DNA of 64,000 bases from Gammaproteobacteria bacterium (GCA_965237805.1 OZ250153.1:1600001-1664000), one strand, 5' to 3'. Counted from the stretch's first letter, positions 29,397 through 61,083 are shown. Notes: generated by a model from the sequence alone, not told the origin. Numbers and translations are program-made.

Positions 29397-31058
29397 ATGG
29401 ATACAAGCGACCAGTCGGAGCTGGACACAGCTGTTATGACCACGACGAAGGCCTCAGATATCTTCGTCCGCTGCTTGGAAAACGAGGGTGTCGAGCATGT
29501 CTTCGCGGTGCCGGGTGAAGAGAACCTCGACCTGCTCGAGTCCTTGCGCCAATCTAAAATTCGCCTGATTTTGACGCGCCACGAGCAGGGGGCGGCTTTT
29601 ATGGCCGCCACTTATGGGCGCATGACCGGCCACGCTGGGGTCTGTATGGCGACACTGGGACCTGGGGCGACCAATTTGGTCACCGCCGCTGCCTACGCAC
29701 ACCTCGGTGCCATGCCGCTGGTCATGGTGACTGGGCAGAAGCCGATACGCACCTCCAAACAGGGGCGTTTCCAGATCATTGATGTGGTGCAGATGATGCA
29801 GCCGATCACCAAATCGGCCCGCCAGATTGTCGATGCCGATATGGTGGCACCGCTAGTGCGCGATGCTTTCCGCCTCGCCGAGGAGGAGCGCCCCGGTGCG
29901 GTGCATTTGGAGCTGCCAGAGGATATTGCCGCCGAGACCACCGAGGATTGGCACCTCTACGACCCGAGTCCGGTACTGCGCCCACAAGCGGCAGAGGAGG
30001 CGGTGGAGCGGGCGGCAGAAATGATTCGCGAGGCGCATTGTCCGCTGTTGCTGGTGGGGGCAGCCGCCAACCGCCATTGGGTTTTCGAGCCCCTGACGCG
30101 CTTTGTCACCGCCTTGCAGCTGCCCTTCCTCAACACACAGATGGGCAAGGGGGTCATCAGTTGCGAGGTGGATGGTTTTCTCGGCACGGCGGCGCTGTCG
30201 GACAAAGATCTCATCCACGAAGCCTTCGAACTGAGCGATCTGGTCATCAATGTCGGTCACGATGTGATCGAAAAACCACCTTTTCTCATGCGTCGCGACA
30301 GCGCTTTCAAAGTCATCCACCTCAATTTCCAGAGTGCGGATGTCGATCCGGTCTACTTCCCGCACCATCAAGTAGTCGGCGATATCGGCAACGCCATTGA
30401 GCGCCTCGGTGCAAAACTGTCGATGGCACCCTTGCGCAGCGACCACAGCGCCCTATTGCGTCTGCGCGAGCGCATCGGCGATGCGATCCACGCCGATGAC
30501 GATGCCGCTGGCTGTCCGGTCAAGCCGCAGCGCGTGGTAGCCGAGGTGCGCAAGGGGATGGCGCAGGACGGTGTCATCGCCTTGGACAACGGCGTCTACA
30601 AGATATGGTTTGCACGCAATTATCCGACTTATCGTCCCAACACGGTGTTGCTCGACAACGCCTTGGCGACGATGGGTGCCGGACTGCCGCAGGCCATGGG
30701 GGTGGCGCTGATGTACCCGAAGCTGCAGGTGGCAGCGGTGTGCGGCGACGGTGGTTTCATGATGAACAGCCAAGAGCTGGAGACGGCCATCCGCCTCGAG
30801 TTGAATCTCTGTGTGCTGGTGTTGCGCGATGATTCTTATGGCATGATCCGTTGGAAGCAAGCGGATGCTGGCTTCCCTGATTGGGGGCTGGAATTTGGCA
30901 ATCCGGACTTCCTGCGCTACGCCGAGAGTTACGGTGCGCATGGCCACCGCGTCGAGGCTCCAGAAGACATCTCGCGCCTGTTGCGCCACGCGGCCGAGTG
31001 TGGCGGGGTCCATTTGATCGAAGTGCCTGTGGACTACAGTGAGAACGACAAAATCTAG
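29397..31058 (+). CDS. TPP-dependent acetolactate synthase large subunit-like protein (alternative start 29436)
   Basis: VPGEENLD, TRHEQGAAFMA, TLGPGATN, GDGGFMMNSQELETA TPP-binding motif. Confidence 0.92.
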   Translation: MDTSDQSELDTAVMTTTKASDIFVRCLENEGVEHVFAVPGEENLDLLESLRQSKIRLILTRHEQGAAFMAATYGRMTGHAGVCMATLGPGATNLVTAAAYAHLGAMPLVMVTGQKPIRTSKQGRFQIIDVVQMMQPITKSARQIVDADMVAPLVRDAFRLAEEERPGAVHLELPEDIAAETTEDWHLYDPSPVLRPQAAEEAVERAAEMIREAHCPLLLVGAAANRHWVFEPLTRFVTALQLPFLNTQMGKGVISCEVDGFLGTAALSDKDLIHEAFELSDLVINVGHDVIEKPPFLMRRDSAFKVIHLNFQSADVDPVYFPHHQVVGDIGNAIERLGAKLSMAPLRSDHSALLRLRERIGDAIHADDDAAGCPVKPQRVVAEVRKGMAQDGVIALDNGVYKIWFARNYPTYRPNTVLLDNALATMGAGLPQAMGVALMYPKLQVAAVCGDGGFMMNSQELETAIRLELNLCVLVLRDDSYGMIRWKQADAGFPDWGLEFGNPDFLRYAESYGAHGHRVEAPEDISRLLRHAAECGGVHLIEVPVDYSENDKI

Positions 31059-31113
31059 TTGGCTGAAGCGGGCGCTGTTCGCGTCGGTTTGGGTCGCTCT
31101 AGAGGCGATGTAG

Positions 31114-32494
31114 ATGTCAGAATTGGAAATCGTCAACGCCTATAGTCGCGCAGTTTTGCGGCGCTTGCCGCTGCTTAGTGCCGCAGAGATTGAGGCGATG
31201 TTGGAGCGCGCATCAGCGTTGCACCGGAGTGCCGATGCGCCGTTGCCACCGTGGCGGCGCTTGGAGATCTTGGAGCGCCTTGCCACTCTGATGGCCGAGC
31301 GTGCCGAGTCCTTGGCGCAGCTGATCGCCACCGAGGGGGGCAAGCCCCTGCGCGATGCCCGCGTCGAGGCCGAGCGCGCCGTCGGCGGGGTGCGCGATGC
31401 CAGCGCCGCATTGCGCAAGCTGGCAGGGGAGGAGATCCCGATGGGGCTCAGCGCCGCCAGCGTCGGACGGCTCGCCTTCACCACCCGCGAGCCGTGCGGA
31501 GTGGTGGTGGCGGTCAGCGCCTTCAATCATCCGCTCAACCTGATCGTGCACCAAGTGGTGCCGGCCATTGCCGTGGGCTGTCCGGTGATCGTCAAGCCAG
31601 CTCCGCAGGTGCCGCTGTGCTGTTTGGAGTTTGCCGAGCTCTGCGCTCAGGCTGGTCTGCCCGAGGGCTGGTTACAGCTGGCCTATTGTGGCAATGAGGA
31701 GGCCGAGCGCTTGGTGACCGACCAGCGCGTGGCTTTTTTCAGTTTTATTGGCTCATCGCGCGTCGGCTGGATGCTGCGCTCGCGCTTGGCCCCCGGCACG
31801 CGCTGCGCATTGGAGCATGGTGGGGCTGCGCCGGTCATCATGCTCGACGATGCTGACTGCGCGGCGGCGGTGCCACTACTCGCCAAGGGCGGCTATTACC
31901 ATGCTGGCCAAGTGTGTGTCTCGGTGCAGCGTGTCTTTGCCACAGCTGCGCGTGCGGGCGATTTGGCGCGGCAGCTGGCCGATTGCGCACGCGGCCTGCG
32001 TGTCGGCGACCCGCTGTTGGAAGAGACCGACATCGGCCCGCTGATCAGCCCTGCAGAGGTGGCACGCGTGGACGAATGGGTGCGCGAGGCGGTGGCCGGT
32101 GGCGGCGAGCTGCTGTGTGGTGGCGAGCGGCTCACTGAGACCAGCTACGCCGCCACCGTGGTCTTGGACCCACCTGCCGACAGCCGGCTGGCCTGCGCTG
32201 AGATCTTCGGCCCGGTCATCTCAGTGTTCAGCTGCGCCGACCGAGCAGAGGCCATCGCCCGTGCCAACAGCCTCGATGGCCTTCCAAGCGGCGGTCTTCG
32301 GGCGCGTCGGCACCTTGCTGGACACGGCGCGGCGGCTGGATGCCTCTGCGGTGATGGTCAACGACCACACCGCCTTCCGCGTCGACTGGATGCCCTTTGC
32401 CGGACGGCGCAGCTCTGGTCTCGGGGTCGGCGGCATCGGCCACACGATGGCCGATATGTCGCAGGAGAAGCTGCTGGTGATGCGCTTGGACTGA
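31114..32494 (+). pseudogene. Aldehyde dehydrogenase with a frameshift near 32277 (true lesion or assembly error)
   Basis: FNHP, KPA, FIGS, LEHGG, AGQVCVS, EIFGPV in one frame; the C-terminal AFQAAVF...MPFAGRRSSGLG...QEKL is in another frame (ORF 32099..32494). Confidence 0.85.
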
Positions 32495-32515
32495 GACCCG
32501 GCAGGGCGGTGGCGC
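32231..32515 (+). repeat. Direct repeat copy 1: ALDH 3' end plus downstream bases (copy 2 at 35442..35705)
   Basis: Near-identical sequence from GCTGCGCCGACCGAGCAGAGG to CTGAGACCCGGCAGGGCGGTGGCGC at both places. Confidence 0.95.
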
Positions 32516-32599
32516 ATCCCCGTTCTCCCCATCCTCTAGCTACCGGATGGCTTCATCTTAGCACGGCCAGCTGATTGATCAGAGCTTCCTTAAGTGGTT

Positions 32600-33460
32600 T
32601 TATCCGCTTGAATAATTAACTTTCACAAGTTTAGAGTCAATGTAATGGCCATGCGGATCAGAATCTAATTTATTCTCATCTTGCAGAAAATCAGCAGAAT
32701 AGTTTTCGTTTGACACATAAATATGCGCCTTGTTCTCGCTACAATCAAAAGCTATATTTTTTGCGGTATTCTGGGTGATTGTGTTATAGCCTGCGTAATA
32801 GTTGATATTTTCTGATGGAGCTTCTCCAATTACAATAATCTTAGGGTCGATGCTCTCTAACCAGTCAGTTGGGCTTTGCCGCTATCTCTTCCATGGTGTG
32901 GGGCATGTCGGCTTTACCTGGAGCCTATTTTCCATGAAGTCTGATTCAAGATCTCCCATCCAGAGAAATTCCGCTCCATCTTTTAAACTATATTTAACTA
33001 CACATGAAATGTTATTAGGGCTTTCACCATCCTTTACTTTCCGAGCGATTTAAAATATTCATTTGATGTGATTGGCCATAGATGCCAATGCCAGAAGATC
33101 CTCTCCCATTTAGCTTGATTCAGCAGCATCTTTTGCAGCACTCTTTTTTGAATGATCTCTCAGTTCGCAATAGCGCTTGAAATCGACTGTCTCGGATTCC
33201 TTGGTGGCTGTTGTTGCGCAATAGAAATTTTTAATTTGCATTTTTTTATCCAACGCCACTAGATTTCTTATATGGCACCGTCTGGATGCGTTGAAATAAA
33301 GCGTTCAATTCCTTTGGCTGAAGATTGCCGTTCAATCTCGATTAGAATCCATTCTTTATTTTCATCTGACATGCAACGCAATCATAGTGAAATTATCACT
33401 TTCATGCTTGATATAGAACATGTCGCCATCACCTACGGCTAGTGACTTGACGGTGCTCAT
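32600..33460 (-). pseudogene. Decayed metallo-beta-lactamase-fold (ComEC/Rec2-like) hydrolase
   Basis: Manual translation: MSTVKSLAVGDGDMFYIKH, FISTHPD, SPNNISCVVKY, FLWMGDLE, PKIIVIGEAP; multiple stops and frameshifts; AT-rich. Confidence 0.65.
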
Positions 33461-33576
33461 GAGGCTTTCTCCTGCCGCGCTATTTCGATTCGTTGCCATA
33501 GGAAGTCTGTTTATGATAAGCAGCAAGGAAAAGGATGGTAACCATTATTACAGACCAAAGGTGATGCTGGTTTCAA

Positions 33577-33602
33577 TGAGAACGACAAAATCTAGTTGGC
33601 TG
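33577..33602 (+). repeat. 26-bp exact copy of the acetolactate synthase gene's last codons, stop and downstream bases (31040..31065)
   Basis: TGAGAACGACAAAATCTAGTTGGCTG at both positions. Confidence 0.9.
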
Positions 33603-34391
33603 CGGGCCAAATTGTTTCGGTTTGTTCATAGATTCTGGCTATTAAGAGAACTATAAACAAAGCAACAAAAGTGCGGTACATATTATTCACCTCAGAGAGG
33701 AGTTCGATCTTTTCATCTTTTTTTGATGCTGAAATAAAATCCCCGTAATTTTCGTGGCTAGGTAATAGGAATTTTTTCGGCGAGTATTAGAGCCCCCACT
33801 CTACTGATGATTGCCAATAAAGTAGTAGAAGAATACACCGGTGAGGAGGCTGTCTTGTATAAACGAGCGTTGCAGGAAAGCCTCCGCCAAGATGCAAAGA
33901 CCGTCCCTGTCAACAGATAGTTGAAGATGTCGTACGATGAGAATTTATCAGATATTTCATTTGTTATCTATTTTCCTATGGTTTCCTGTTGGTGATTGTC
34001 TGCTACCCGGTCATTACCGTATACGGTTTGGCACTATACCATTATTTTAGGGAATTACATACTTGCTTGCCGCGCAAGTCAAGATCCGCATAGTCGTGGC
34101 TAGGCATGGTTTTATGGATTCGGCTCCAGCCTTGATTCGTAACAAAAAAAGCCGCTCTCGCTTGGCCTGTATCCTTATTGAGGATGAAAATGACATTTTT
34201 GTGGCCACCACGCATCATGCTATACGGCATTTTGTCAACCATGGCCACTAGCGAAGTAAGACTGCGTCACGACTGCCACAAACCGGCAATTGGGGCAGTT
34301 TGGTGGATTGGGACATGCTGAAGCCTTGGTTCGTCTAGGCCAAGCGATGGATGCACTCTTTCATGCGCTTGTTAGCGGGCCAGTCTCATCA

Positions 34392-35247
34392 TCAAAATGA
34401 ACCGCAGCGCGTAGCTATTGGTAAGAATCGATCTAGTGTTATCCGGAATTCTTGCCATGTCCTGCGCTTGCATCCAAGCCAAGACCTTCCCCAGGTGGAC
34501 TTGTAGGCACGAGTGAGCCAATAGTCGTGCCACGGTCGACGGCCTTCCTCATCTGCTGGATTTCGTTTCTCCAGTAGGCGAAGAAGTCCGGGCGGATTGA
34601 GCCTAGCGTAGATCACATCTTTGCTAATGGAGCTACCCACGCGGGGTTTGCGGTTTTCTACCCGGATTGCTGTGGCCAGCATTTCTTCCCACTCATCCAC
34701 GCGCAGCGGTATATATGTTCATAAAATTCTAATGGGAACTGGTGACCGAGCTTAATGTATTCATGAGCCAAGATGGCTTCAAATGTCTCGCGTAGTGTGC
34801 GTTTGCCGAGTCTTCATAGCCAATAGCCCATGGCAACTGGCCACACCCATTAGTGCCCTGCCCAGCATCTCTGCAGCGGCAATGCGCACACTGTGGCTTA
34901 GTCAGCGCCCCATCTTGCTTGGCGCTAAGCCAGACCTGTATCAGGTTGGGTAGCAAGAGGGCGTCAAATCCGCGTGCTCGGCCACCACGCCTCAATGTAT
35001 ACGGAATTGGGCGAAAAGTAGGAAGCGATTTATCCTTTGCTATATATGCCGACTTATGCTCTCGATTCGCATGGCAAAAAGTAGGAATCGGCTCCCAATG
35101 CGGATTGAGAGTGTGGTGCGCCCAATACGTCCTCAAGAGCGCCTGATTACCCGCGCCACAGCGCAGGCAATCTCCGCACATGCCGTCCCTAACCGCTTTG
35201 AATGATTGCGTCGGCCTTCATCTAATTTGCTTTTATTATCTTTCATG
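34392..35247 (-). pseudogene. Fragmented P63C-domain protein
   Basis: Fragments GGRARGFDALLLPNLIQVWLSAKQDGALTKPQ and DVIYARLNPPGLLRLLEKRNPADEEGRR...WLT resemble P63C-family proteins; broken across frames. Confidence 0.6.
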
Positions 35248-35441
35248 CCGCGGATAGGTGAGCCGCTTGCCAACCGCCGTAGCGAGGCGATGCGCTCCAT
35301 CGTGTGGCGCGCACATTGCCAGCTCACATGGCAGTGCTTCTGGCTCCAATTGTGGTAAACGCCATTGTAGCCGCGCTTCAGCACCGCCCAGCTCTCTATT
35401 CCATTGGTGCTGCCATGCCATTCACATACTCCCTGCCGATG
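35236..35441 (-). mobile_element. IS1595-family transposase C-terminal remnant
   Basis: STNGIESWAVLKRGYNGVYHNWSQKH and GKRLTY motifs; the 5' part is cut off at the ALDH echo. Confidence 0.75.
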
Positions 35442-35705
35442 GCTGCGCCGACCGAGCAGAGGCCATCGCCCGCGCCAACAGCCTCGATGTGGCCTTCCAA
35501 GCGCGGTTTTCGGGCGCGATATCGGCACCTTGCTGGACACGGCGCGGCGGCTAGACGGCGCGCCTTCCGCGTCGACTGGATGCCCTTTGCCGGACGGCGC
35601 AGCTCCGGTCTCGGGGTCGGCGGCATCGGCCACACGATGGCCGATATGTCGCAGGAGAAGCTGCTGGTGATGCGCTTGGACTGAGACCCGGCAGGGCGGT
35701 GGCGC
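35442..35705 (+). repeat. Direct repeat copy 2: orphan ALDH 3' end
   Basis: Encodes CADRAEAIARANSLDVAFQ...AFRVDWMPFAGRRSSGLGVGGIGHTMADMSQEKLLVMRLD*, with its own indels. Confidence 0.95.
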
Positions 35706-35713
35706 GCCGTCAG

Positions 35714-36439
35714 CTAGGTCACCGTGGCCGAGCCGAGTAACCACCAAGCGGCGAGCGCGAGCAATATCAGTGCCGTGGACAGCGCCATCAGTGCGCGCCA
35801 GTTCCCCATCAGTCGGCGCAGCTGTTCTTCGCTCAGGCGTGATGCCACGCCGCTGATGATGGCGAAGCGCGCGCCGCGCCCGCAGCCCGACGCGATGATG
35901 AAGCCCAGCAAGGGCTGCGCCATCACACCTGCGGTGAAGGTGAACAGCTTGAAGGGCAGCGGCGTGAAGCCGACGATCAGCAGCGCCCACACCCCCCAGC
36001 GGTGGAACCAGGAGCGTGCGGTGTCGAAGTGCGCGGCGTAGCTGGGGTGCCGGTAAAGCCACGGCTCCAGCCACTCGAAGAAGAAGCTGCCGATGGCGTA
36101 GCAGCACAGCCCGCCCAGCACTGAGCACAGCGTCGCCAGCAATGCCAGCTGCCACCAGCGCCTGGGCTGCGCCAAAGCCATCGGTGCCAAGATGGCATCG
36201 GGCGGCACCGGCAGGATGATCGCCTCGCTCCAACTGACAAATACCAGCGTCCAGACGGCGTAGCGGTGGCGGGCTGCGGACAGCGCCCAAGTCATCATCG
36301 CCGAGCTCCAAGCCTTCCAGTCCGAGCTCAGTGCCTGATCGGCGGCGGTAGTTGCCCTTGCCGCCACAGCTGGCTCGCTCTCCGCATTGCTCGTCTGAGC
36401 CAGAGCTGGTTGCAGCTCCGGAGAAGATGACTCTGCCAT
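35714..36439 (-). CDS. YqaA/DedA-family (VTT domain) membrane protein
   Basis: SWSEAIILPVPPD, SVLGG...YAIG, GFTPLPFKLFT, GRGARF; hydrophobic. Confidence 0.88.
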   Translation of the reverse strand: MAESSSPELQPALAQTSNAESEPAVAARATTAADQALSSDWKAWSSAMMTWALSAARHRYAVWTLVFVSWSEAIILPVPPDAILAPMALAQPRRWWQLALLATLCSVLGGLCCYAIGSFFFEWLEPWLYRHPSYAAHFDTARSWFHRWGVWALLIVGFTPLPFKLFTFTAGVMAQPLLGFIIASGCGRGARFAIISGVASRLSEEQLRRLMGNWRALMALSTALILLALAAWWLLGSATVT

Positions 36440-36510
36440 GGTAGTCTGCCCCTCATGTTGCAGCATCCGCAACGAGTCAGCTATGATGCATTCTAGCACT
36501 GGGGGCGGCC

Positions 36511-36540
36511 TTGCTAAGGCTCCAAAACATGGGCTATAAT
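36511..36540 (+). promoter_or_regulatory. Putative sigma70 promoter of the 23S-5S unit
   Basis: TTGCTA-18 bp-TATAAT, about 310 bp upstream of the 23S start. Confidence 0.55.
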
Positions 36541-36849
36541 AGCCGTCTAATCTCCTGCCCAAGTGGTTGGAGACTGCTATTTGTCAACTGGTAGAGCCAA
36601 GGTGCGTGGCTGCCCGCAAGGGTACGCCGCGCAAATAAATCGCTTATATAGAAGCGAATTTTTAGCTGATAGATAATTAGTTAATGGGTTTTATTAAGGG
36701 CATGTGCCCTATTAATGCGCATGTCCGGCGAAATAAGATCGCGGGTGCCAGCAAGTAGCTCGGCAACCCGCCTCTGTGATCTCAACGCCCCATAGAGTGG
36801 GCGTTTACCCAGTCTGGTGACACTTCGGTGCCGCTGTTCCGGGTGATAG

Positions 36850-39786
<2,937 letters not shown>

Positions 39787-39889
39787 TATCACCCGGGCCA
39801 GTGGCCCGGACCGGATATGCGTTGTAGCGCGCATCCCTTGATAGCCCATGCGCCGCTTTTGCGGCGGCCTCGGCTCTACCAACCTTTTA

Positions 39890-40008
39890 TGCCTGATGAA
39901 CACAGAGCGCTGGTCCCACCCGATCCCATTCCGAACTCGGCAGTGAAATGGCGTATCGCCGATGGTAGTGCGGGGTCTCCCCGTGTGAGAGTAGGACATC
40001 GTCAGGCA
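39890..40008 (+). rRNA. rrf: 5S rRNA
   Basis: TGCCTGATG...CCCATTCCGAACTCGGCAGTGAAA...GATGGTAGTG...GAGAGTAGG...CGTCAGGCA with complementary ends. Confidence 0.96.
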
Positions 40009-40021
40009 CCCTTGGCGCGCC

Positions 40022-40054
40022 GCCGCCCCAGACCAGGGGCGGCAGCCTTTTTTT
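40022..40054 (+). terminator. Rho-independent terminator after 5S
   Basis: GCCGCCCC-AGACCA-GGGGCGGC stem followed by AGCC and a T7 run. Confidence 0.8.
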
Positions 40055-40187
40055 GTGGCCTCCCTGTCGCGGAAGTCACTGCAATCCGGCTCTGAGGATC
40101 GGCTGGCGTTGCAGCTGTAATTCGCTGTTGTACGCCGCCTCTACGGACTGCGCCACCGTCTCCGAGCGGAGCGTTGCGAAGACACCC

Positions 40188-41086
40188 ATGGCAAAAAACA
40201 GGCGCGACTTCGTAACGCGGGCAAGGAACTGGTTGCAGAACAACAAACACCACTTTGAGGATCTGCCTATCTTTGTGGTCGGCATGGGCCATTCGGGCAC
40301 AAGCGCACTTTGCCAAGCCTTGCAACGGCATTCCCAAGTGAGGATGCTAGCCAAGAGGCCCCGCTATTTGGAGATCTGGGGCAGATGGCTTTCCGCTACG
40401 GTTGCGAGCCCTCAGTATTAGGCAATCCTTATGTGCCGGGTTCGGTGAAGATCAGTGCGGAACAGTTTGGCAAGATGCTCAGGGATTTATGCTACCGTTG
40501 CGCTTTCGGCACCACCTCCCCGGGTTTGAAAGGCTTGCTGGTTTGGCGCAACCGACATCCGCAGTACCGCGGTCACGGCCCCAAAAAATACTGGGGCATC
40601 AAAACCTTCCCTAATGAGCAGCAGGCTGCAGGCTTGCGGTGGCTCTATCCGCAGGCTAAATTCCTGCTCATCGTCAGAAACGGCATGGATGTCGTGCAAT
40701 CGATGTCGGGCTATGGTTATTACTCGCAACAGTCCTTCGAAGAGCGTTGCCGCACTTGGAATACGGTGATGATGAGCTATCGCTTCCTCGGAGACCGTGC
40801 CGAGGCGCTGACCTTGGGCTTCGAGGATTTGCTGGGGGACCCTGCAGCGGTTTTGGCACGCGTTTGGGGTCATTTAGAGCTGGCTGCGGATCCCGCGCCA
40901 GCACATTTCCTATCCTCCACTTTTGTCCACACCCAAAACAACCCGGTAATAAAGGAAAGCGACCCGCTGGTACAGCTGCGCAATCGCTCAGCGGCTTATC
41001 AGGATTGGAGTAGCGAAGAAAAAGCTGTTTTCAAGGAGCTGTGCGCAGAATCCATGGCCGAGCTCCGTTACGACATACCGTTTTGA
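40188..41086 (+). pseudogene. PAPS-dependent sulfotransferase with a 1-bp frameshift near 40353
   Basis: 5'-PSB motif PIFVVGMGHSGTS in the frame starting at 40188; WGIKT and 3'-PB IVRNGMDVVQS plus FEDLLGDP in ORF 40310..41086. Confidence 0.8.
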
Positions 41087-43110: not shown

Positions 43111-43113
43111 GCT

Positions 43114-50160: not shown

Positions 50161-51237
50161 ATGGATTTCCAATTCAGCGAAGAGCAGCGCATGTTCGAGC
50201 GCAGCCTGCGCGACTTCCTCGCCGCCGAGCTGTCGACCGAGCGCATCCGGGAGCTGTGGGACAGCGCTAGCGGTCGCTGTGACAAACTGTGGCGCGGCCT
50301 CAGCGAACTCGGTGTGATCGGTGCCTTGGTGCCAGAGGCCGACGGCGGCCTCGGCTTGGACGAGCGCGATTTCGTGTTGATGGCGGAGGCCTGCGGCCAC
50401 GCCGCCCTGCCGGAGCCGCTGGTGGACAGCGCCTTGCTCGCGGCTCCGCTGTTGGCGGCGGCGGGTGGTGAGGCGGCGCAGCGCTGGTTGCCGCCGCTGC
50501 TCAGCGGCGAGGCGCGCGTGGCTGTCGCCACCCCGCTGGATTTGTTGGTGCCAGACGCCGATGTCGCCGCTGCCGTGCTGTTGGCTGGCGGCTGCGCTGG
50601 CGACGACGATGGCGAGCTGCGGCTACTGGCGCTGCCGCCCGCCGCTGGCCTGCGTCGCCAGCACAGTGTGGATCCATCGCGCCGCCTCTTCAGCCGCGCT
50701 CCGCTGGGCGGCGGCGAGTTGCTGGCAATGGGAGACTCGGCGCGGCAGCTGTGGGCGCAAGCCTTGAATCGCGGTGCGCTGGGCGCGGCGGCACAGCAGT
50801 TGGGTGCGGCGGCGCGGATCTTGGAATATGCGGTGGCCTACACCTCCGAGCGCAAGCAGTTCGGGCGCGCAATCGGCTCGTTTCAAGCGGTGCGCAACCA
50901 GTTGGCCGATGTCGCGGTGGCCTTGGAGTTCGCCCGCCCGGTGGTCTATCGCGCCGCCGACAGCTTGGCGCGCGGCGTGGCGACGGCCGCGCGCGATGTC
51001 TCACACGCTTGGCTGGCTGCTGGCGAGGCGGCGCGCATGGCGGCGCGGCACGGCATCCAGTCGCACGGGGCGATCGGCTACACCTGGGAGCTGGACTTGC
51101 AGATCTGGCTCAAGCGCATCTGGGTCACGGATGCGCTGTGGGGCGGTCGCGCATGGCACAGTGCGCGACTCGAGGCGGCGGTATTCGCGCCCGATGCCAT
51201 GCTCGGCGCGGGCCACACTTTTGATGACGGGGGGTGA
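50161..51237 (+). CDS. fadE32: Acyl-CoA dehydrogenase partner subunit, FadE32/ScdM2-like
   Basis: MDFQFSEEQ, SVDPSRRL, RKQFGRAIGSFQAV, HGAIGYTWE.DL.IW.KR; follows the fadE31-like gene. Confidence 0.75.
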   Translation: MDFQFSEEQRMFERSLRDFLAAELSTERIRELWDSASGRCDKLWRGLSELGVIGALVPEADGGLGLDERDFVLMAEACGHAALPEPLVDSALLAAPLLAAAGGEAAQRWLPPLLSGEARVAVATPLDLLVPDADVAAAVLLAGGCAGDDDGELRLLALPPAAGLRRQHSVDPSRRLFSRAPLGGGELLAMGDSARQLWAQALNRGALGAAAQQLGAAARILEYAVAYTSERKQFGRAIGSFQAVRNQLADVAVALEFARPVVYRAADSLARGVATAARDVSHAWLAAGEAARMAARHGIQSHGAIGYTWELDLQIWLKRIWVTDALWGGRAWHSARLEAAVFAPDAMLGAGHTFDDGG

Positions 51238-51562
51238 TGCCAGCAGCTGGTGTGAATTCTGTCTCCTTTTGATGCTACGGAAACATGATTCAGCATTCTG
51301 CCAATCCACTTCGCCATCAGGCATCAGCGAGAGCAAAATGCAGTATTCTTTGAACCTGCCCTTGCTATGGACAGCCTCAGGACAAGGGGCGTGGTGGCGA
51401 CCTACTTTCGTTGCAGCGTGGGCGCACCGCCTCTATCGGCCACCCAGCCCATGCAATGGTATCGCGTCACATCGTACGGGCACTAGAACGGATAGCCTGT
51501 CGGCATCACCCCTACGGGCTGAACAGGACTATCACCCTACGCACGGGATGGTCGGTAGTGGC

Positions 51563-52231
51563 TCAGTTTAATTTGTCGGCCAAAGCCGCGATGTCCTCTA
51601 GGCTCCAAAGGCGCTTTGACACCCCGGCTTCCATCGCCGGGCTGTACCGCAGGGTGCCGTGGATGCGGGCGAAGTTGTAGTGCATGTAGTGCAGGCTGAT
51701 GGCGTGGGCGTGGTTCTCAAGCTTCTTTGAGAAGGCGTTAGTCAGCCGAGCGAAGCGCCGCATGGACATGCGCATCGTGAGGTTCTGGCGCTCTACATAA
51801 GAGGTTGAGACATCCGCCCGCCGTGGACGGCCTGTAACAGCCCGCTTCCTAGCGCCCACGCACTGCGCGGGGCTGTAGCGCCGCTCTGCAGCCTTGTCCG
51901 GTGCTGCTCCATACAACTTGACTAGCTGGGCGTAGTCGATGTCACTCCCAAAGGCTCCGGCCACGGCATCTAGGTAGGCTCCGTGGCCGTCAGTTGTCAG
52001 CTGCACACGCCCCGACAGCCGCTCGGCGAGGTCGTCCATGAAGCGGTTAGCGGCATTTGCGTTGCGCGGCCCAACATGCCAGCAGGGCACCAGCTTGGTG
52101 TCAGCGCAGATGGCTACCCATGTCCAGACATCGCCCAGCCCAAACTCGCCGCGCCTGTCTGGCGGCAGGTTTCGCTGCTTGGCATAGACGAAGCTCCAAA
52201 TCTCGTCGCACTCCACGCGCTTGCAAGGCAA
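51563..52231 (-). CDS. IS1-family DDE transposase, N-terminal DNA-binding region missing
   Basis: [53 protein letters not shown]; under 80 bp separates it from the divergent cargo gene. Confidence 0.88.
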
Positions 52232-52307
52232 TTCCCGCAGGCGCTATACTCAAGTGTGGTATAGTGATTGACCCGTCTTCTTCGATGCGCCCACACAGCC
52301 TCAACCA

Positions 52308-53390
52308 GTGATGAAATACGCCATATGGAACAACAAGGGAGGGGTGGGCAAGACTTTCCTTACTTTTGCGCTGGCCACCTTAACTGCAGAACGATTCAAT
52401 GCAAAAAAGAGGGGGAGCCATCACGCCCGCCAAGTGGTGGTCATAGATATGTGCCCCCAAGCAAATGTGAGTGAAATACTTCTAGGCGGCAATGGCTCTG
52501 GATCAGATAAGCTATCAGAACTCATAGAAAAAGATAAGACGGTCGCCGCTTATTTTCGTCAACGGATACAGGTAAAGCCTTACCAGCCCATGAATAATGA
52601 AAAGAGTTATGCTATCCGTGTCAGCGAACATAACCAACACATTCCCGAGAACTTACATCTAATCTCTGGAGACCCTGAGTTGGAATTACAAATACCAACC
52701 ATCAATTCTCTAGCTGGGCAGGCTATGCCAGAGAATGCTTGGATTGCCGTGCACCAGTGGGTTACTAATTTGATAGAGGGATGCCAAGGACATCTCGGCC
52801 AAGACACGGTCTTCTTCATCGATTGCAACCCCAGTTTCTCTGCCTATACTGAATTGGCACTGGTTGCAGCAGAACGCTTAATAGTCCCCTGCAGTCCAGA
52901 TGGCTCGTCAGCTAGGGCAATATTTAATGTGGCGCGGCTAGTCTATGGTCATAACCTGCAAACAAAGTATAAACAACTGCGATTTAGCGCAAAAATGGAC
53001 GAATCTAATGCCATCCCTCCCCGAATGCACCTGTTCGTAATGAACAGAGCTACGATGTATGCTGGCGATATGGCTAGAGCATTTGATGCGATGGCACAAG
53101 AGTTAAATGAAAAAGTGCAACAATTACATAGTGGCTCTGGCGGTATAGAGATGTTTTCAACACAGGACGGAAACACCTTGTTTGAGAATCTGGATCATAT
53201 GCCTGATTCTCATAGTGTAGGCATAGTAATGGCACATACAGGTAGACCGCTTAGCGCGATCCACCCCGGGGCTATTAAGTATAACATCAGTAGCGCGCAT
53301 AATATCAATATAACTGTTGGGGCTGAGCAAAAAGCACGCTATCTTGAGGCTTTAGAGAGAATAGTAGACCGCCTTGATCTTGGATTTTAA
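52308..53390 (+). CDS. Orphan ParA/MinD-family ATPase (IS passenger, AT-rich)
   Basis: Deviant Walker A WNNKGGVGKT, IDMCPQAN, FIDCNPSF. Confidence 0.88.
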   Translation: MMKYAIWNNKGGVGKTFLTFALATLTAERFNAKKRGSHHARQVVVIDMCPQANVSEILLGGNGSGSDKLSELIEKDKTVAAYFRQRIQVKPYQPMNNEKSYAIRVSEHNQHIPENLHLISGDPELELQIPTINSLAGQAMPENAWIAVHQWVTNLIEGCQGHLGQDTVFFIDCNPSFSAYTELALVAAERLIVPCSPDGSSARAIFNVARLVYGHNLQTKYKQLRFSAKMDESNAIPPRMHLFVMNRATMYAGDMARAFDAMAQELNEKVQQLHSGSGGIEMFSTQDGNTLFENLDHMPDSHSVGIVMAHTGRPLSAIHPGAIKYNISSAHNINITVGAEQKARYLEALERIVDRLDLGF

Positions 53391-53650
53391 CTCTTCGACC
53401 ACCTCGCTTTCACGGCCTGCCGCGCTATCTCGTTGCGCCGCTCTGGCGACATCTTCTCCGCTCTAGCCCTGCCGCCCTTGAGGCCGCCCAGCCTGCCACG
53501 CTCCACAGCCTGAGGGTTCTTGGGCGGCTCAGGCGGCGGCGCATACTCGCCCACGGACTGCTCCATGACCTGCTTGGCGCGCAGGTTGAGGTCGCGGGGG
53601 CGCTTGGGCTTGCCTTTAGGGGGCGTGTGTTCGGGACGGTCTTCGCTCAT
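53387..53650 (-). CDS. Small basic KGG-motif protein at the IS end
   Basis: PKRPRDLN.RAK...KNPQAVERGRLGGLKGGRARAEKMSPERRNEIARQAVKARW; GC-rich like the transposase. Confidence 0.8.
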   Translation of the reverse strand: MSEDRPEHTPPKGKPKRPRDLNLRAKQVMEQSVGEYAPPPEPPKNPQAVERGRLGGLKGGRARAEKMSPERRNEIARQAVKARWSKS

Positions 53651-53716
53651 GTCGGCGATTGTCGCCTAGCGAGCCAGCGCGTCAACCCCAAACTGAGCCA
53701 CTACCGGATGGTCGTG

Positions 53717-53983
53717 CTACTTGTTCCCAACAAAGAGATTGTTTAGGTAGCATGCATGGTGTAGGATTTCTTTTGCCATAGCGTCTGTCACATCATCTAC
53801 ACAACGATTTTGGTCGCCTTTAGGAATCAGTTCTCTAGCTCTAACTAGACTGTCGTATACAACTACACCAGTAACTAGAGCTTGGGCGCTTGCTAGAGCT
53901 GGACCTTTTTGTGGATGACGGTCCCACAAACCTAGATGTTTATACCCTTCATCACTCATCATTAATTCCCTCCTAGGAACCAT
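53717..53983 (-). pseudogene. Unknown AT-rich gene fragment next to the IS insertion
   Basis: 88-aa ORF, with SD AGGAGG before an internal ATG, ending 3 bp from the TSD; no recognisable motif. Confidence 0.3.
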
Positions 53984-54150
53984 TATTTATCAGTATATAA
54001 CAGACACCAGAGCAGACGGAGGGTCTAGCTCCTGGCGCTCACGTCGATAAGGGAATGCGAAGCGCTTATCTCCACCGCTCGGCTAATGGTTACTGGCTGC
54101 GCAGGGAACTGATACATACACCCCCATAGCACTCAATATCTCCCGCCTAC

Positions 54151-54204
54151 TTCTCCCCCGACGCTGCGCTCGGCGCAGGGTATACTTTTGATGATGAGGA
54201 GTGA
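54151..54204 (+). repeat. Diverged copy of the last 17 codons plus stop of the fadE32-like gene (51184..51237)
   Basis: FSPDAALGAGYTFDDEE* versus FAPDAMLGAGHTFDDGG* (12/17 residues identical, same length, same TGA). Confidence 0.85.
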
Positions 54205-54209
54205 TCTCG

Positions 54210-54904
54210 GTCGCTGACGCGAATACAGCTTGCATTTTTCTTTATTGGTTGGCAGCCCGCTGCTCAATCGATGCAGAATCTGAATTGTAGAAGAACTTAG
54301 TGATGGAACCATCACTAATAAACTGCACTTAAAGATGTCGGTATCTTCAGAAAAAACAAAATATCAAGCGTGCCATGAAATGATTCATATCTGGACGGCG
54401 CTCTGTTGTTGCCCAATTCGGATTATCCTTTAGCAGTTGGACATAGAGCTGATTGAGTTGACTAGTCGCTCGCATGTCCAAGCTGCTCTCACGGATTTGT
54501 TTGACGGTGCTGATTCCGGCGAGAGGCAAGAAAAAACCCAAATAATCAGGTAATTCGGCATATTTGCAAGCGATGGATTCACCCCTAACAAGATCTTCGG
54601 AGAGCAAGATCTCTCCATCAGTTGCTAAAATAAATTTTGCGTTTGCAGTGGTGGTTTTGACGTTATCCCGCAAAGCGATAAGTGTCGCATCGACAGCGCC
54701 TGGATCACACATCGCCATATGGATATTATTGCGCTGTAAAACGCCACCGGGAACATCTGACGTATTAGAGATGCCACGTTGTAGTTTGTTGATGGTGGTT
54801 GATGTGTTCCCAAATGCCGCAAGAAATTGATAAGGGAATACCTGCATATCAAATGGCTGACCAGCTAATTCTGACACTGCCTGTTCAATTTCAACGGCAT
54901 TCAA
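54210..54904 (-). pseudogene. Truncated MmeI/YeeA-type restriction-modification (DNA methyltransferase) N-terminal fragment
   Basis: MNAVEIEQAVSELA..PFD...FPYQFL.AFG, LQRNNIH, FILATDG, FFLPLAGI, NHFMARLIFCFF, then a frameshift into EDTDIF; methyltransferase motifs absent. Confidence 0.8.
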
Positions 54905-54944
54905 AACTTGGTCCTCTCGCTATTCACAGTAAACAGTCATCTGG

Positions 54945-57025: not shown

Positions 57026-58177
57026 ATGAGTGAAGCCTACATTGTCGATGCCCTGCGCAGCCCCACCGGTCGCCGCAACGGCAGCCTCGCCAGCTGGCAT
57101 GGTGCCGATCTCGGTGCCGCGGTGTTGCGCGCCTTGGTCGATCGCAATGCGGTGCCAGCCGAGGACTACGACGATGTGGTCTTCGGTTGCGTCGATGCCA
57201 TCGGCCCACTGGCTGGCGACATCGCCCGCACCGCATGGCTCGCCGCCGGTTTGCCGGATGCCGTGCCCGGGGTGACGGTGGATCGCCAGTGCGGTTCTTC
57301 GCAGCAGGCGCTGCACTTTGCCGCCCAGGGGATCATGAGCGGCACCCAAGATGTGGTGGCGGTCGGCGGCGTACAGACCATGAACGCGATCCCGATCTCA
57401 GCGGCCATGCTGGCGGGGCGCGAATACGGCTTTGAGGATCCTTTTTCCGGCTCCGAGGGTTGGGTGGCGCGCTACGGCACAGAGACAGTGTCGCAATTCC
57501 ACGCCGCCGAGCGCATTGCCGAGAAATGGGATTTGAGCCGCGAAGAGCTGGAGCGCTACGCCCTGCAGAGCCACCAGCGGGCGGTGGCCGCCATCAAAGC
57601 CGGTTATTTCGACAGCCAGCTGTTGCCGGTAGGGGGTTTGGAGCATGACGAGACACCGCGTGCATCCACGACGCCAGAGAAGATGGCCAGCTTGGAGCCG
57701 CTGCTCGAAGGTGGTCGTCTGACGGCTGCCACCTCCAGCCAGACCTGCGATGCCTCGGCGGCTCTGCTGATGGTGTCCGAGAGTGCTATGAAGCGTTATC
57801 AGTTGCGCCCACGGGCACGCATTCACCATCTGAGCGTGCGCGGTGACGATCCGATCTGGATGCTGACAGCACCGATCCCGGCCACCCGCTACGCGATGGA
57901 AAAGAGCGGCATGTCCTTGGCGGACATCGATCTGGTCGAGATCAACGAGGCCTTCGCCTCAGTGCCACTGGCTTGGTTAGCAGAGACCGGCTATCCCGAG
58001 GAGCAGACCAATGTCAACGGCGGTGCCATCGCCTTGGGCCATCCCCTGGGGGCCACCGGAGCCCGCCTGATGACCGCCCTGCTATGCGAGCTGGAGCGGC
58101 GCGGTGGCCGCTACGGCCTGCAGACCATGTGCGAGGGCGGTGGGCAGGCGAATGTGACGATTATTGAGCGGGTTTGA
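57026..58177 (+). CDS. fadA6: Acetyl-CoA C-acyltransferase (thiolase), FadA6/ScdF-like
   Basis: SD TAAGGAG; [51 protein letters not shown]; steroid cluster context. Confidence 0.85.
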
Positions 58178-58363
58178 TGTCTCAGCATTGTATTATTTTG
58201 ACCTTATGTATTTAGGGAGCCTAAAATCAGGTGCCTATAACACCGCTAAGGATACCAGAGAACCTGCCGAACCGAATGATCAGATTTCTGCAGACACGGT
58301 TAAATATGATATAGTCAGGAACTATGCCAACAAACCAGTAGATTTGGCTCGTAGCGTGGCAAC

Positions 58364-60649
58364 ATGATTACTAAGTTTCAGCTTATTAGAAACATTGGCA
58401 TTTTCGATTCAGTCGATACTGGCGCTCGACTGCTATTAAACCGATTTGCGCTGATCTACGCCGAAAACGGAAGAGGTAAGACTACGTTAGCGGAGATACT
58501 TAGGTCCCTTGGTAGCAACAACCCTCTTCCCATTTTGGAAAGACACCGCCTTGGTGCAAAGGGGCCACCACATGTTGTAATTGTAGATGACACTGATAAA
58601 GAATCTGTATTTGAGAACGGCATTTGGAGCAACTATTTCTCTAGTATTACGGTCTTTGATGATCACTTTGTTACAGAGAATATTTGCTCCGGCATGGAGG
58701 TTGAGATTACGCATCGGAAGAAGCTTCATGAGCTGATCATTGGTGAGCAAGGTGTCAAGCTAAACACAGATCTTCAAGGGCACATCGATCGCATTGAGCA
58801 ACATAATCGCGACTTAAAAATCAAAAAAGATAGAATTCCACATAATATCCTGCACAGCCTCACTGTCGATGCATTTTGTGAGTTAAAGGAGCAACCAGAC
58901 ATTGATGCATTGATAACAGAGGCAGAACGTGCTCTTGCTGCGGCACATCAGGCTGATGCCGTTCGACAGGCACCCTCTTTTGAACCCATTTCATTGCCAC
59001 CGATTAATTTATCAGACATCGAGGTGGTTCTGAGCACTCAACTCCAAAATCTAGAAGAAAGAACAGTGGGGCTTGTTCAAAAACACCTCAAAAAAATAGG
59101 AGACGCTGGAGAAGCTTGGGTCGGAGATGGTATGCTCCGTATCAAAGGTGCGTCCAACAATAGTGATAAGGGGACATGCCCCTTCTGCGCCCAAGACTTG
59201 AGTGGATCGCCAATTATTACCCACTACCGAGCCTATTTTAGCGGTGTATATGCGGAATTAAAAAGTCATATCGACACTGCTATCGGGAACGTTGAATCAG
59301 TACACACTGGAAAAGCTCTGGCAATCTTTGAGCGTAGCATTCGTCATGCTGAGCGCTCTAGAGAATTCTGGAAAACTTTTGTCAATGTTCCTGATATCTC
59401 AATTAATACAGAGGAAATCTCACTAGCATGGAACGAAGCAATTCAAGGTATTCTCAGAGATCTAAGAACCAAACAATCCGCGCCGCTCGATCCCGTTTCC
59501 ATTGATGATTCAATTCGCGAGAAGGTTCGTGCATTTGATCAGTTTCGAAGGGAAATTGAGCGACTTAGCGCAGACTTGCTACAGACTGGACAACAGATCG
59601 ATCGCGCTAAGGCAGAGGTTGCGGCAGCTGATGTCGCTGTATTGACAACCCGTCTTGGTAAACTTAAGGCTACCAAGGAACGATTTCTTCCACAAGTTAT
59701 AGTATTATGCGGTGCCTACCTTCAGGAAATTAGCGACAAGATCGCCACTGAGCATCGAAGGCAGACCGCGCGTGAAGCCTTGGATCAATATCGAGAACAT
59801 ATTTTCACGAATTATGAAACCGCGATCAATGAATATCTCGAAAAGTTCAATGTCGGATTTCAGTTAGGTAGTGTTAAGGCGGGGAATAGGGGGAAAAGTT
59901 CGACCTGTAATTATAACGTTTTAATCAATGACAAGGCTGTAGAATTGGCTCCCAGAGAAGGAGAGCAATCTTTCAAGAATACGCTCAGTGCAGGTGACAG
60001 AAATGCACTCGCGTTGGCATTTTTTTTGGCATGCCTTGAGCTTGACCCCAATCATAATCAAAAGATCGTGGTAGTTGATGACCCCATGACCAGCCTTGAC
60101 GAACATCGGCAGGGCACAACGATTCATGAAATTCGGCGGCTTTCAGGTAACGTTGCCCAGCTAATTATCTTCTCACACTCTAAGCAGTTTCTTTGCGGTC
60201 TCTGGGAAGGGGCCGACACGAATCTTCGTTCGGCTTGCCAGATTTCACGCGCTAACGATGGTTCCAAGCTTACTGAGTGGAATGTGAGTCAAGATTGTAT
60301 TACCGAGCATGACAGACGTCATGCGCTGGTCCGTTCTTACATTGATGGCTCTGCAAGCTCTAACAAGCGAGAAGTTGCTAGTGCTCTGCGGCTGATCTTG
60401 GAGTCGTTTGTACGGGTTGCATACCCAGAGTCATTTTGTCCTGGAGATTCATTGGGGGAGTTCATTCATCATTGCAAACGAGAAGAGGCTATCCTCTCTT
60501 GTGCAGATATCAGCAGCCTCGACGGCTTGCTGGTCTATGCGAATAAATTCCATCACGACAAAAACGTAGGCAGCCAGACTGCTGAGATCAATGAAACCGA
60601 GCTCCTTCATTTTGCCCGTGAAACATTGAGTTTTACAAAACGAGCCTAA
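58364..60649 (+). CDS. RloC-like AAA_13/SMC-type ABC ATPase with zinc hook and putative C-terminal HEPN nuclease (defence)
   Basis: Walker A YAENGRGKTT, coiled coil with CPFC, signature LSAGD, Walker B/D-loop VVVDDPMTSLD, H-loop FSH, C-terminal RLILE...NKFHH; AT-rich. Confidence 0.8.
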   Translation: MITKFQLIRNIGIFDSVDTGARLLLNRFALIYAENGRGKTTLAEILRSLGSNNPLPILERHRLGAKGPPHVVIVDDTDKESVFENGIWSNYFSSITVFDDHFVTENICSGMEVEITHRKKLHELIIGEQGVKLNTDLQGHIDRIEQHNRDLKIKKDRIPHNILHSLTVDAFCELKEQPDIDALITEAERALAAAHQADAVRQAPSFEPISLPPINLSDIEVVLSTQLQNLEERTVGLVQKHLKKIGDAGEAWVGDGMLRIKGASNNSDKGTCPFCAQDLSGSPIITHYRAYFSGVYAELKSHIDTAIGNVESVHTGKALAIFERSIRHAERSREFWKTFVNVPDISINTEEISLAWNEAIQGILRDLRTKQSAPLDPVSIDDSIREKVRAFDQFRREIERLSADLLQTGQQIDRAKAEVAAADVAVLTTRLGKLKATKERFLPQVIVLCGAYLQEISDKIATEHRRQTAREALDQYREHIFTNYETAINEYLEKFNVGFQLGSVKAGNRGKSSTCNYNVLINDKAVELAPREGEQSFKNTLSAGDRNALALAFFLACLELDPNHNQKIVVVDDPMTSLDEHRQGTTIHEIRRLSGNVAQLIIFSHSKQFLCGLWEGADTNLRSACQISRANDGSKLTEWNVSQDCITEHDRRHALVRSYIDGSASSNKREVASALRLILESFVRVAYPESFCPGDSLGEFIHHCKREEAILSCADISSLDGLLVYANKFHHDKNVGSQTAEINETELLHFARETLSFTKRA

Positions 60650-60871
60650 TCGAATCAACGGAGAATAATATAGAGCCAATAATTACAATTTTATATAGAG
60701 GATATGAACACCGGATTCGACGTGTCATTGTTTTGAGCATGATCATGTGGAAATCTTCTGTTCGTTGTTGATAAGATAACTTGGCAATGCCAGTGACAAG
60801 TGATATTGATTCCATCTCTCGCGTTTCGAACTGCTGCGTCTTCTTGTTCCCTACCCCACTTTCTCTTTACT

Positions 60872-61083
60872 ACTGGCCTAGCTAGCCGAAACCGACTACC
60901 CCAAAGAGCAGACCAACGTCAACGGCGGAGCCGTCGCCCTCGGCCACTCCCTCGGCACCACCGGTGCCCGCCTGATGACCCCTTGCTGTGCGAGTTGGAA
61001 CGGGCGGGGGGAGCTACGGCCTGCAGATCAGGTGCGAGGGCGGCAGGCAGGCAAATGTGACGATTATTGAGCGGCTGGGGTAG
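60872..61083 (+). pseudogene. Diverged orphan copy of the thiolase 3' end (57967..58177)
   Basis: [35 protein letters not shown]...CELE...[19 protein letters not shown]; many third-position changes, one nonsense change and indels. Confidence 0.92.

Follow-up and report, generated by a model that had tools for sequence, protein, structure and literature searches.

This study concerns a 64,000-nucleotide stretch from a Gammaproteobacteria bacterium (the window; bases 1600001-1664000 of one 1.73-Mb contig, GCA_965237805.1 OZ250153.1; GC content 61.6%), in which four loci repeat one arrangement: a conserved gene, a segment of accessory DNA behind it (the cargo), and an orphan copy of the end of the gene (the echo of its tail). 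We interpret these loci as scars at which accessory DNA was added behind conserved genes by general recombination and not by a site-specific integrase, and we give this reading a probability of about 60%. The cargo is inserted, integrases are absent, the repeats vary in length and have no common core, partial gene copies are biased towards 3' ends, and tails and echoes are diverged versions of functional gene ends. An earlier note on the same DNA had proposed an interpretation of this kind, and that interpretation is largely supported.

Repeats in the window were found by BLASTN self-comparison, which, together with a focused search at one locus, confirmed all five echo pairs that the earlier note had described. 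Every echo lies on the strand of its parent gene and downstream of it. The genomes G001 (same genus), G002, G003 and G004 were used as relatives, and two sequencing runs of one sample (X1 and X2) contained the genome at 97% and 87% of the sampled words. Sample contigs were compared with the window over 29301-49300, which covers loci 1 and 2. Small indels separate the window sequence from these contigs at 32276, 32306, 34889, 35390, 36443 (in DedA) and 41736, which suggests residual consensus errors or another strain. Because several of these are one-base differences (e.g., 36443 in DedA), frameshifts in the assembly are not to be over-read.

Insertions behind conserved genes

The accessory segments are inserted DNA, as the earlier note had supposed, because relatives have empty sites in their place. 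The inserts measure 2.7-2.9 kb, and a genome-wide comparison found no copy of the cargo elsewhere in the genome. The repeats range across loci from 29 to ~530 nt, with 264-285 nt at the aldehyde dehydrogenase (ALDH), 55 nt (up to 74) at the acyl-CoA dehydrogenase, 205-214 nt at the thiolase and 103 nt at DctM, a further locus described below. Much of the accessory DNA is of low GC and of the selfish or defence type; PADLOC recognized in it an ATPase of type PDC-S06, a gene resembling AbiZ and part of a type IIG restriction-modification gene. The thiolase locus (locus 4) is composed as follows.

57026-58177, plus strand: thiolase (NCBIfam NF005865, 680.9 bits), with its tail repeat at 57967-58171
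58178-60871, plus strand: cargo 4, of low GC (0.45-0.48)
58364-60649, plus strand: intact 761-aa AAA_13 ATPase within cargo 4 (Pfam AAA_13; PADLOC PDC-S06, E 1.8e-60, residues 1-687)
60872-61083, plus strand: echo of the thiolase tail, with one in-frame stop and two 1-nt gaps
61158-62345, minus strand: DUF6161/AbiZ-like gene (Pfam DUF6161; PADLOC AbiZ, E 7.7e-13)
62412-62487, minus strand: tRNA-Ala(cgc), whose 3' end faces the islet

The low-GC cargo begins at the last codons of the thiolase, and the tail and its echo (57967-58171 and 60872-61074) are 83% identical over 205 nt (E 2e-54), with an exact block of 21 nt at the gene end. The 761-aa ATPase is a candidate defence gene of type PDC-S06, as judged from its sequence. 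Older cargo and the outer edge of the islet are represented by the DUF6161/AbiZ-like gene and the tRNA-Ala (61158-62487). In G003, ~300 nt lie between the thiolase and tRNA-Ala, and window 58178-62411 is absent. G001 has a thiolase echo of its own, 366 nt plus a 53-nt piece, located ~230 nt after its thiolase; this variable echo length (205 nt vs 366 + 53 nt) argues against a fixed attachment site.

Some side observations were made around this locus. Three tandem 33-nt units, 70-76% alike, lie at 61650-61748 within the DUF6161/AbiZ-like gene. A DUF6161-like stretch in G001 (contig C66, 13452-13683) is 72% identical to window 61222-61456; it lies in reverse orientation across the fatty-acid gene cluster, so the accessory gene has moved locally. 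At the start of the window, 1-18917 (genome 1598105-1618917) is filled with giant internal repeats, 70-94% alike, with a spacing of 279 nt and larger steps and a GC skew of ~+0.27 throughout, and this stretch is probably one huge repeat-protein gene. A comparable open reading frame (ORF) of at least 1467 aa with strong skew follows directly after the thiolase echo of G001.

The acyl-CoA dehydrogenase locus (locus 3) lies upstream of the thiolase.

50107-51257, plus strand: acyl-CoA dehydrogenase (Pfam; called fadE32 in the earlier note), with its tail repeat at 51184-51238
51258-54150, no strand assigned: cargo 3, containing an IS1-family transposon and an 88-aa low-GC ORF
51554-53705, no strand assigned: IS1-family transposon in cargo 3 (transposase fragment and ParA-like match; Pfam, NCBIfam)
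54151-54205, plus strand: acyl-CoA dehydrogenase echo, comprising the final 17 codons and the stop (42/55 bases identical to 51184-51238)
54347-54904, minus strand: N-terminal part of a restriction-modification gene of type IIG, MmeI-like (MmeI_N, E 1e-25; PADLOC REase_MTase_IIG, positions 7-201/912)

This short echo was seen in a focused search of 6.3 kb against 5.7 kb (E 1.7e-5). Tail and echo align in frame with their stops, the tail reading FAPDAMLGAGHTFDDGG and the echo FSPDAALGAGYTFDDEE, each followed by the stop codon, and the echo matches the tail of G001 at 34/45 bases. The homology of the locus to G001 extends 20 nt past the stop codon, to 51257, and from there the gene of G001 abuts sequence matching window 56784 onward. 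In G002, ~120 nt separate the acyl-CoA dehydrogenase from the thiolase, and both G001 and G002 are without window 51258-54944 between the two genes. Since 204 nt of the 5' end of a GH2 gene remain upstream of the thiolase in G001, that gene was lost there by deletion, and the region has undergone both gains and losses. The type IIG fragment beyond the echo reads as older cargo; it is all that the inserts hold of restriction and modification genes.

The transposon in cargo 3 is bounded by perfect 16-bp inverted repeats (GGTAGTGGCTCAGTTT). It has an 8-bp target duplication of its own, GGATGGTC, at 51546-51553 and 53706-53713, and its insertion was a separate, later event. Its transposase halves are high in GC and are split by a low-GC ParA-like gene, so that it is an IS1-family element with a ParA-like passenger or an interrupted one. 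No terminal inverted repeats were found at the cargo borders, the sole perfect pair being that of this internal transposon. The window, though free of integrases, does contain this IS1-type transposon.

The locus with acetolactate synthase (ALS) and ALDH (locus 1) carries two of the five echoes.

29397-31058, plus strand: ALS-type TPP enzyme (Pfam TPP_enzyme N, M and C; NCBIfam NF006187, 801.8 bits, above cut-off)
31114-32493, plus strand: ALDH (Pfam Aldedh, E 7e-100, residues 3-388 only)
32231-32515, plus strand: ALDH tail repeat, copy 1, reaching 22 nt past the stop (BLASTN self-comparison)
32516-35441, no strand assigned: cargo 1, 2.9 kb, of low GC (0.40-0.56), without an intact gene and with a weak P63C fragment (Pfam)
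33574-33602, plus strand: echo of the ALS stop region inside cargo 1 (28/29 bases, exact run of 26, E 1.3e-5 vs 31037-31065)
35442-35705, plus strand: ALDH tail echo, adjoining the 3' end of DedA
35714-36562, minus strand: DedA, convergent with the ALDH tail echo

The ALDH repeats differ by 3 substitutions and 4 indels (E 1e-101; longest exact block 99 nt). The parent of the 29-nt ALS echo comprises the last 22 nt of the ALS gene and 7 nt after its stop (31037-31065). Cargo 1 had no DNA match in a phage collection. In G001, ALS-ALDH (79% identical) is followed by ~250 nt, DedA and the 23S flank, with nothing matching 32516-35441. The ALDH of the window reads as frameshifted, with TG missing after 32276 and ATA after 32306, as also seen in the alignment with G001. 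The dominant sample contigs contain both TG and ATA, which restores the frame; the idea that both ALDH copies are pseudogenes was thus dropped for copy 1.

In X1, cargo 1 had a k-mer depth of 7.9 and the ALDH contig one of ~33; in X2, the cargo was at 2.5-5 and the flanks at 32-124. Cargo 1 is a real islet of a minority haplotype, in a sample of mixed strains. With its near-identical 285-nt repeats, the ALDH event is the newest and is still segregating. One 3099-nt contig of X1, even in depth, carries cargo 1 and the ALS echo within it; it extends from position 32486, which is 30 nt inside the repeat, as far as 35323, and has ~250 extra letters relative to the window. In X2, a contig of depth 72 joins 35434 via 20 other letters to 32223, and the X2 depths of 92 and 72 together account for the 159 seen on the shared ALDH tail. 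In view of this joint, the dominant haplotype may also have two ALDH tails, with other cargo or none between them.

These depths raise the question of an assembly artefact, in which haplotypes of mixed strains were joined in series. Such an error is conceivable at locus 1 only, where the depth of cargo and flank differs 4- to 20-fold, the depth-72 contig joins 35434 back to 32223, and several indels differ from the window sequence. However, echoes at 72-84% identity are not confusable by an assembler, the 3099-nt contig holds cargo 1 and the ALS echo independently and at uniform depth, and G001, which was assembled separately, has its own thiolase echo. Locus 2 contigs are of ordinary depth, and one X1 contig (40014-41714) covers the whole echo there. 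At locus 1 the assembly is borne out by the independent contig that carries the cargo with the ALS echo, and is qualified by the low depth of the cargo as a minority haplotype. We consider an artefact very improbable.

Downstream of DedA, 23S and 5S rRNA genes occupy window 36850-40007 without an adjoining 16S gene or tRNAs. The genome has no second copy of this stretch, and therefore its rRNA operon is split.

Locus 2 differs in that its echo derives from two genes.

43468-45021, minus strand: parent module, a lipoprotein-like ORF (44482-45021) and then a full Tle1-like DUF2235 gene (43468-44436; PF09994, E 1.7e-75)
41782-43386, plus strand: cargo 2, cytochrome P450 (41782-43110) and ferredoxin (43114-43386) (Pfam)
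41139-41670, minus strand: echo of the two-gene module (BLASTN self-comparison; profile match over PF09994 positions 201-286)

The 3' half of the DUF2235 gene is repeated at 41375-41617/43694-43935 (72%, E 4e-31) and 41139-41259/43467-43578 (68%), and the 3' region of the lipoprotein gene at 41607-41670/44544-44607 (75% over 64 nt). In the echo, ~64 nt of the lipoprotein 3' region are fused to the last 152 codons of the Tle1-like gene; the fusion point is an 11-nt overlap of the two alignments, which is an internal-deletion joint and not an insertion joint. The frame is open over the 152 codons and its stop aligns with the parent stop. The GC content and codon use of cargo 2 look native (GC3 0.73-0.74), and locus 2, including the P450-ferredoxin stretch, had no DNA match in G001-G004. 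The echo is a truncated remnant of a second, much diverged lipoprotein and Tle1-like gene pair. The arrangement of gene, cargo and echo proposed here thus keeps its echo, but as part of such a truncated pair (synonymous divergence, dS, 1.45), possibly an old paralog.

Integrases, cores and diverged gene ends

A search of the whole genome with PF00589 gave two matches, at 327 kb and 1484 kb; both lie outside the window and align with the XerD model over its full length (352 and 272 bits). Serine recombinases (PF00239) had no match in the whole genome. Beyond these two Xer-type genes, no integrase was found beside any islet in the window or the genome, in agreement with the statement in the earlier note that the window has no tyrosine or serine recombinase. 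Related copies of the islets did not turn up in other genomes. The same note had seen no attachment (att) core common to the targets, and indeed the five targets have no word of at least 12 nt in common. The longest exact blocks between tail and echo are 99 nt at ALDH, 26 at ALS, 21 at the thiolase, 14 at DUF2235 and 11 at the acyl-CoA dehydrogenase, and such blocks in coding sequence can reflect conservation.

Integrase islands are classically recognized by a gene whose 3' end has been replaced and whose old tail stands at the far att site. The islets could accordingly be decayed integrative islands, i.e., tyrosine-integrase elements that brought replacement 3' ends and whose integrases were later deleted, like cis-mobilisable elements. 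A tRNA-Ala gene borders the thiolase islet with its 3' side, the cargo contains wrecked genes, the ALS repeat of 29 nt (26 exact) has the size of an att core, and the thiolase end has its 21-nt exact block. Nevertheless, the genome has no island integrase besides the two Xer-type genes, and the lack of a common core would require at least five different lost integrases within 30 kb. The echoes are long and vary between species at the same gene (205 vs 366 + 53 nt), and the locus 2 echo covers two genes with an internal deletion. No repeated tRNA-Ala fragment occurs within the thiolase islet, where only chance matches of 9-14 nt were found. For these reasons, decayed islands appear unlikely to us.

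The divergence between tails and echoes provides a second line of evidence. The ratio of non-synonymous to synonymous divergence (omega) was 0.02-0.21 and dS was 0.47-1.45 for the tail-echo pairs. The thiolase pair has 22 synonymous and 11 non-synonymous differences over 66 codons (dS 0.61, omega 0.13), and the DUF2235 pair has a dS of 1.45, a non-synonymous divergence (dN) of 0.31 and an omega of 0.21 over 152 codons. The corresponding counts are 10 and 4 for DctM (omega 0.13), 21.5 and 2.5 for a FadB-like gene (dS 1.41, omega 0.018), and 16 and 3 for the G001 echo against its own thiolase (omega 0.05). The result for RpiA and a copy of its 3' two thirds is less clear (24.5 and 28.5, omega 0.37). 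A dead local copy would be expected to gain ~2.7 non-synonymous changes per synonymous one, based on the thiolase site counts, and the synonymous bias therefore indicates that most changes arose in working genes of separate lineages. Apart from the ALDH pair, tail and echo appear from their sequences to be two lineages' versions of one gene end and not decayed local copies. The claim of separately evolved functional alleles is thereby upheld for DUF2235 and the thiolase and does not apply to ALDH, whose copies are near-identical.

These values also bear on local tandem duplication, in which gene ends or genes were duplicated within this lineage; the spare copy would then have diverged and lost part of its sequence, and unrelated DNA would have entered between the copies later. 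The genome does contain duplications of this type, such as a TonB-receptor pair with a copy of an FAA-hydrolase tail (1323806-1329608) and TPR/SDR units after 1691182. Locus 2, with its dS of 1.45 and open frame, could be an old tandem paralog, and one ancestral duplication would be the simplest account of a thiolase echo in both this genome and G001. However, neutral evolution is expected of a spare copy, and omega is 0.02-0.21. The G001 echo is closest to G001's own thiolase (91-96%) and not to the window echo (81.5%), from which it differs by 23 synonymous and 13 non-synonymous changes. At none of the four window loci does a second copy of the cargo follow the echo, and the DNA flanked by the ALDH repeat is missing from G001. 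We regard tandem duplication as quite improbable.

The bias towards 3' ends, which the earlier note had anticipated, was observed in two genome-wide censuses. In the first, 3906 probes of 100 nt from 1302 genes were matched within 10 kb using 11-nt words. Any match was found for 76 genes, and 35 of them matched with a single probe type: 16 with the 3' end on the same strand downstream, compared with 4 in the mirror class (5' end upstream; two-sided binomial p ~0.012). The other single-type classes were 3' upstream (4), 5' downstream (2), middle (4 downstream and 4 upstream) and 5' on the opposite strand (1). Without the single-type filter, the counts were 41 for 3' downstream, 25 for 3' upstream, 19 for 5' upstream, 18 for 5' downstream, and 31 + 29 for the middle. 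In the second census, every protein was compared with the genome by tblastn, with five repeat proteins skipped, and orphan partial matches within 12 kb were kept. Eleven of the 25 such matches were C-terminal, on the same strand and downstream, and five were in the gene middle; the rest were N-terminal upstream, C-terminal upstream and N-terminal downstream (3 each). ALDH was counted as a middle match because its frameshifted ORF in the window runs past the true stop.

Comparable arrangements occur at further loci. Behind DctM come a low-GC cargo of 2.3 kb with a single ORF of 763 aa, the echo of the DctM tail and a thioesterase gene; in G002 and G003, DctM adjoins the thioesterase gene and the 2.3-kb cargo is absent. 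The contigs of G001 stop at the FadB-like and DctM tails. At genome 1134875-1146126, partial copies of the ends of RpiA, NnrS and MFS genes are nested around an NnrS-NorB insertion. The copy of the last two thirds of RpiA is 81% identical and lies 6.7 kb downstream, and copies of the NnrS and MFS tails stand tail to tail at 1136495-1136703, with further MFS fragments nearby. RpiA adjoins an FAD-oxidase gene in G003, and the two are 10.5 kb apart in this genome.

Two tandem arrays were also seen in the genome. About five 1.24-kb units at 1203499-1209720, ~88-91% alike, each contain a GT10-type glycosyltransferase-like ORF, and ~13 copies of a 26-nt unit at 1670036-1670379 directly follow the gene at 1668871-1669989 and repeat its last bases.

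Proposed route and points that weigh against it

The recombination route, its dependence on homology and the identity of the resident tail are what we infer from these patterns. The incoming DNA would already have been linked, in a related lineage, to that lineage's 3' end of the same gene, and the conserved gene would act as the homologous anchor for host recombination. Entry could then proceed by homologous recombination on one side and an illegitimate joint on the other, or by a single crossover with a circular piece bearing a homologous patch. Either route would leave a whole gene, the cargo and a second version of the gene end, with the repeat length set by chance. The diverged tail pairs would be explained if the donor was another lineage that carried cargo behind the same gene. 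Repeated events at one border would shift older tails and cargo downstream; the type IIG fragment after the acyl-CoA dehydrogenase echo and the AbiZ-like gene after the thiolase echo fit such successive events.

A more tentative extension, which we think doubtful, is that in this streamlined lineage without integrases the islets are mobile by homology alone. The patch of gene 3' end would then be a portable address: the islet would loop out between its repeats, pass to cells of related strains in naked or packaged form, and use RecA to enter again at the same gene. Gene tails would in that case serve as general attachment sites and as the main route of defence-gene turnover, and the segregating ALDH islet would be an example caught in the act.

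Several points weigh against general recombination behind conserved genes. First, the direction of replacement is not borne out. The earlier note had placed a new tail in the gene and the old tail behind it, and the clues from the thiolase conflict: the window echo has the extra glycine codon before the stop that is found in the G001 main tail (LG and stop), with similarity over the next ~12 nt, whereas the window main tail is nearer to the G001 main tail overall (91.8% vs 82.4% for the echo). The dS of the thiolase tail to G001 is 0.36 compared with 0.45 for the whole gene. In sliding windows, dS between the thiolase genes ranges over 0.23-0.84, with 0.34-0.47 in the tail and no step at 57967, in a comparison with one close relative. 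As no dS breakpoint occurs at the repeat boundary, import of a new tail is not demonstrated.

Second, the origin of the cargo allows other histories. The low-GC DNA on both sides of the acyl-CoA dehydrogenase and thiolase echoes calls for at least two successive events at each. The gene wrecks in the cargo mean that an integrase may have been lost, and the locus 2 echo could be an old paralog. Neither a donor genome nor a strain-level variant was found: in a metagenome scan with the thiolase protein as query, 598/601 stretches encoded relatives, and the best protein identity among the 80 loci kept was 73%. ComEC (a 766-aa open frame) and DprA are present, with matches in 10 and 11 of 14 control genomes; both also occur in non-transformable bacteria, and competence is therefore not implied.

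Third, the census and frameshift data have limits. Statements based on frameshifts are weak, given the indel differences between the window and the sample contigs. The census ORFs (1426) came from our own rough caller, which is a crude basis. Among the 16 genes with a 3' match downstream, four are in the window and two are tandem arrays at the gene end; the binomial test for 14 vs 4 gives ~0.03. Selection alone could also produce the 3' bias, because insertions after a stop codon are the least harmful.

The exchange of accessory and defence genes in small free-living bacteria without integrases or prophages is only partly understood. The present genome has at least four scars in 30 kb and more elsewhere, with ages from polymorphic to saturated synonymous divergence. 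It can serve as a test case in which reads of the sample could reveal circles that have been excised, sites without an insert, and other cargos. For annotation it is also a warning: at borders of this kind, orphan gene tails and seeming frameshifts are to be expected as by-products and are not novel genes.

Comparison with known systems

In their general layout, the islets resemble tyrosine-integrase islands and cis-mobilisable elements as these are usually described, with a gene, cargo, a displaced 3' end as a direct repeat and, in one case, a tRNA border. Unlike such islands, they have no integrase in the window or genome and no fixed core, and their repeats reach ~530 nt and vary between species. 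Two systems without integrases offer closer parallels.

Insertion with long target duplication was reportedly described by Nobusato and colleagues in 2000, and its mechanism is still unsolved. In the parts of the paper drawn on here, Furuta, Abe and Kobayashi (2010, NAR, PMC2853133) describe inserts with target duplications of >30 bp to ~420 bp (46 to ~420 in their tables), which occur in several phyla with no other mobile element and sometimes overlap a gene 3' end; most cases were in naturally competent species, and the mechanism was unproven. The islets share with those inserts a length of <20 kb, absence in a relative, variable repeats of >30 bp and the lack of a mobility gene, as well as the often low GC and the selfish defence gene (PMC2853133). 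The target is single-copy in G002 and G003; the exceptions are the ALS repeat of 29 nt and G001 with its own thiolase echo. The screen described there demanded restriction and modification genes, whereas the cargo here consists of an ATPase, an AbiZ-like gene, gene wrecks and P450-ferredoxin. The repeats reported in that account are mostly near-identical; here this is true of ALDH alone, and the others are 72-84% identical with a synonymous bias, which points to alleles of two lineages and not to fresh duplication.

The second parallel concerns displaced gene ends, and C-terminal displacement in Rhs proteins is said to have been reported by Jackson and colleagues in 2009. Kirchberger et al. 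(2017, PMC5361080), in the portions used here, describe a stepwise displacement of effector 3' ends and immunity genes, which they call 'akin to' homology-facilitated illegitimate recombination, and cite the same idea for Rhs loci. As in that system, a conserved upstream anchor is retained, a new module adjoins it, the old 3' end is shifted downstream, and arrays build up without an integrase (PMC5361080). The displaced parts in that description are toxin tips and immunity genes under selection, whereas the anchors here are ALDH, acyl-CoA dehydrogenase, thiolase and DctM, and the tails are dead. Only locus 2, with its Tle1-like and lipoprotein genes, resembles an effector-immunity pair, and the genome has no gene for the sheath of a type VI secretion system (PF05943; TssC/VipB).

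The earlier note had proposed a general, non-site-specific route. The arrangement fits insertion with long target duplication (PMC2853133) and 3'-end displacement (PMC5361080) as far as these accounts go, and it is a further case of a described kind of insertion and not a new route. What the window adds to these systems is the number of events that a single small genome without integrases contains, the role of housekeeping enzymes as anchors, evidence from synonymous divergence, and one event that is still polymorphic.

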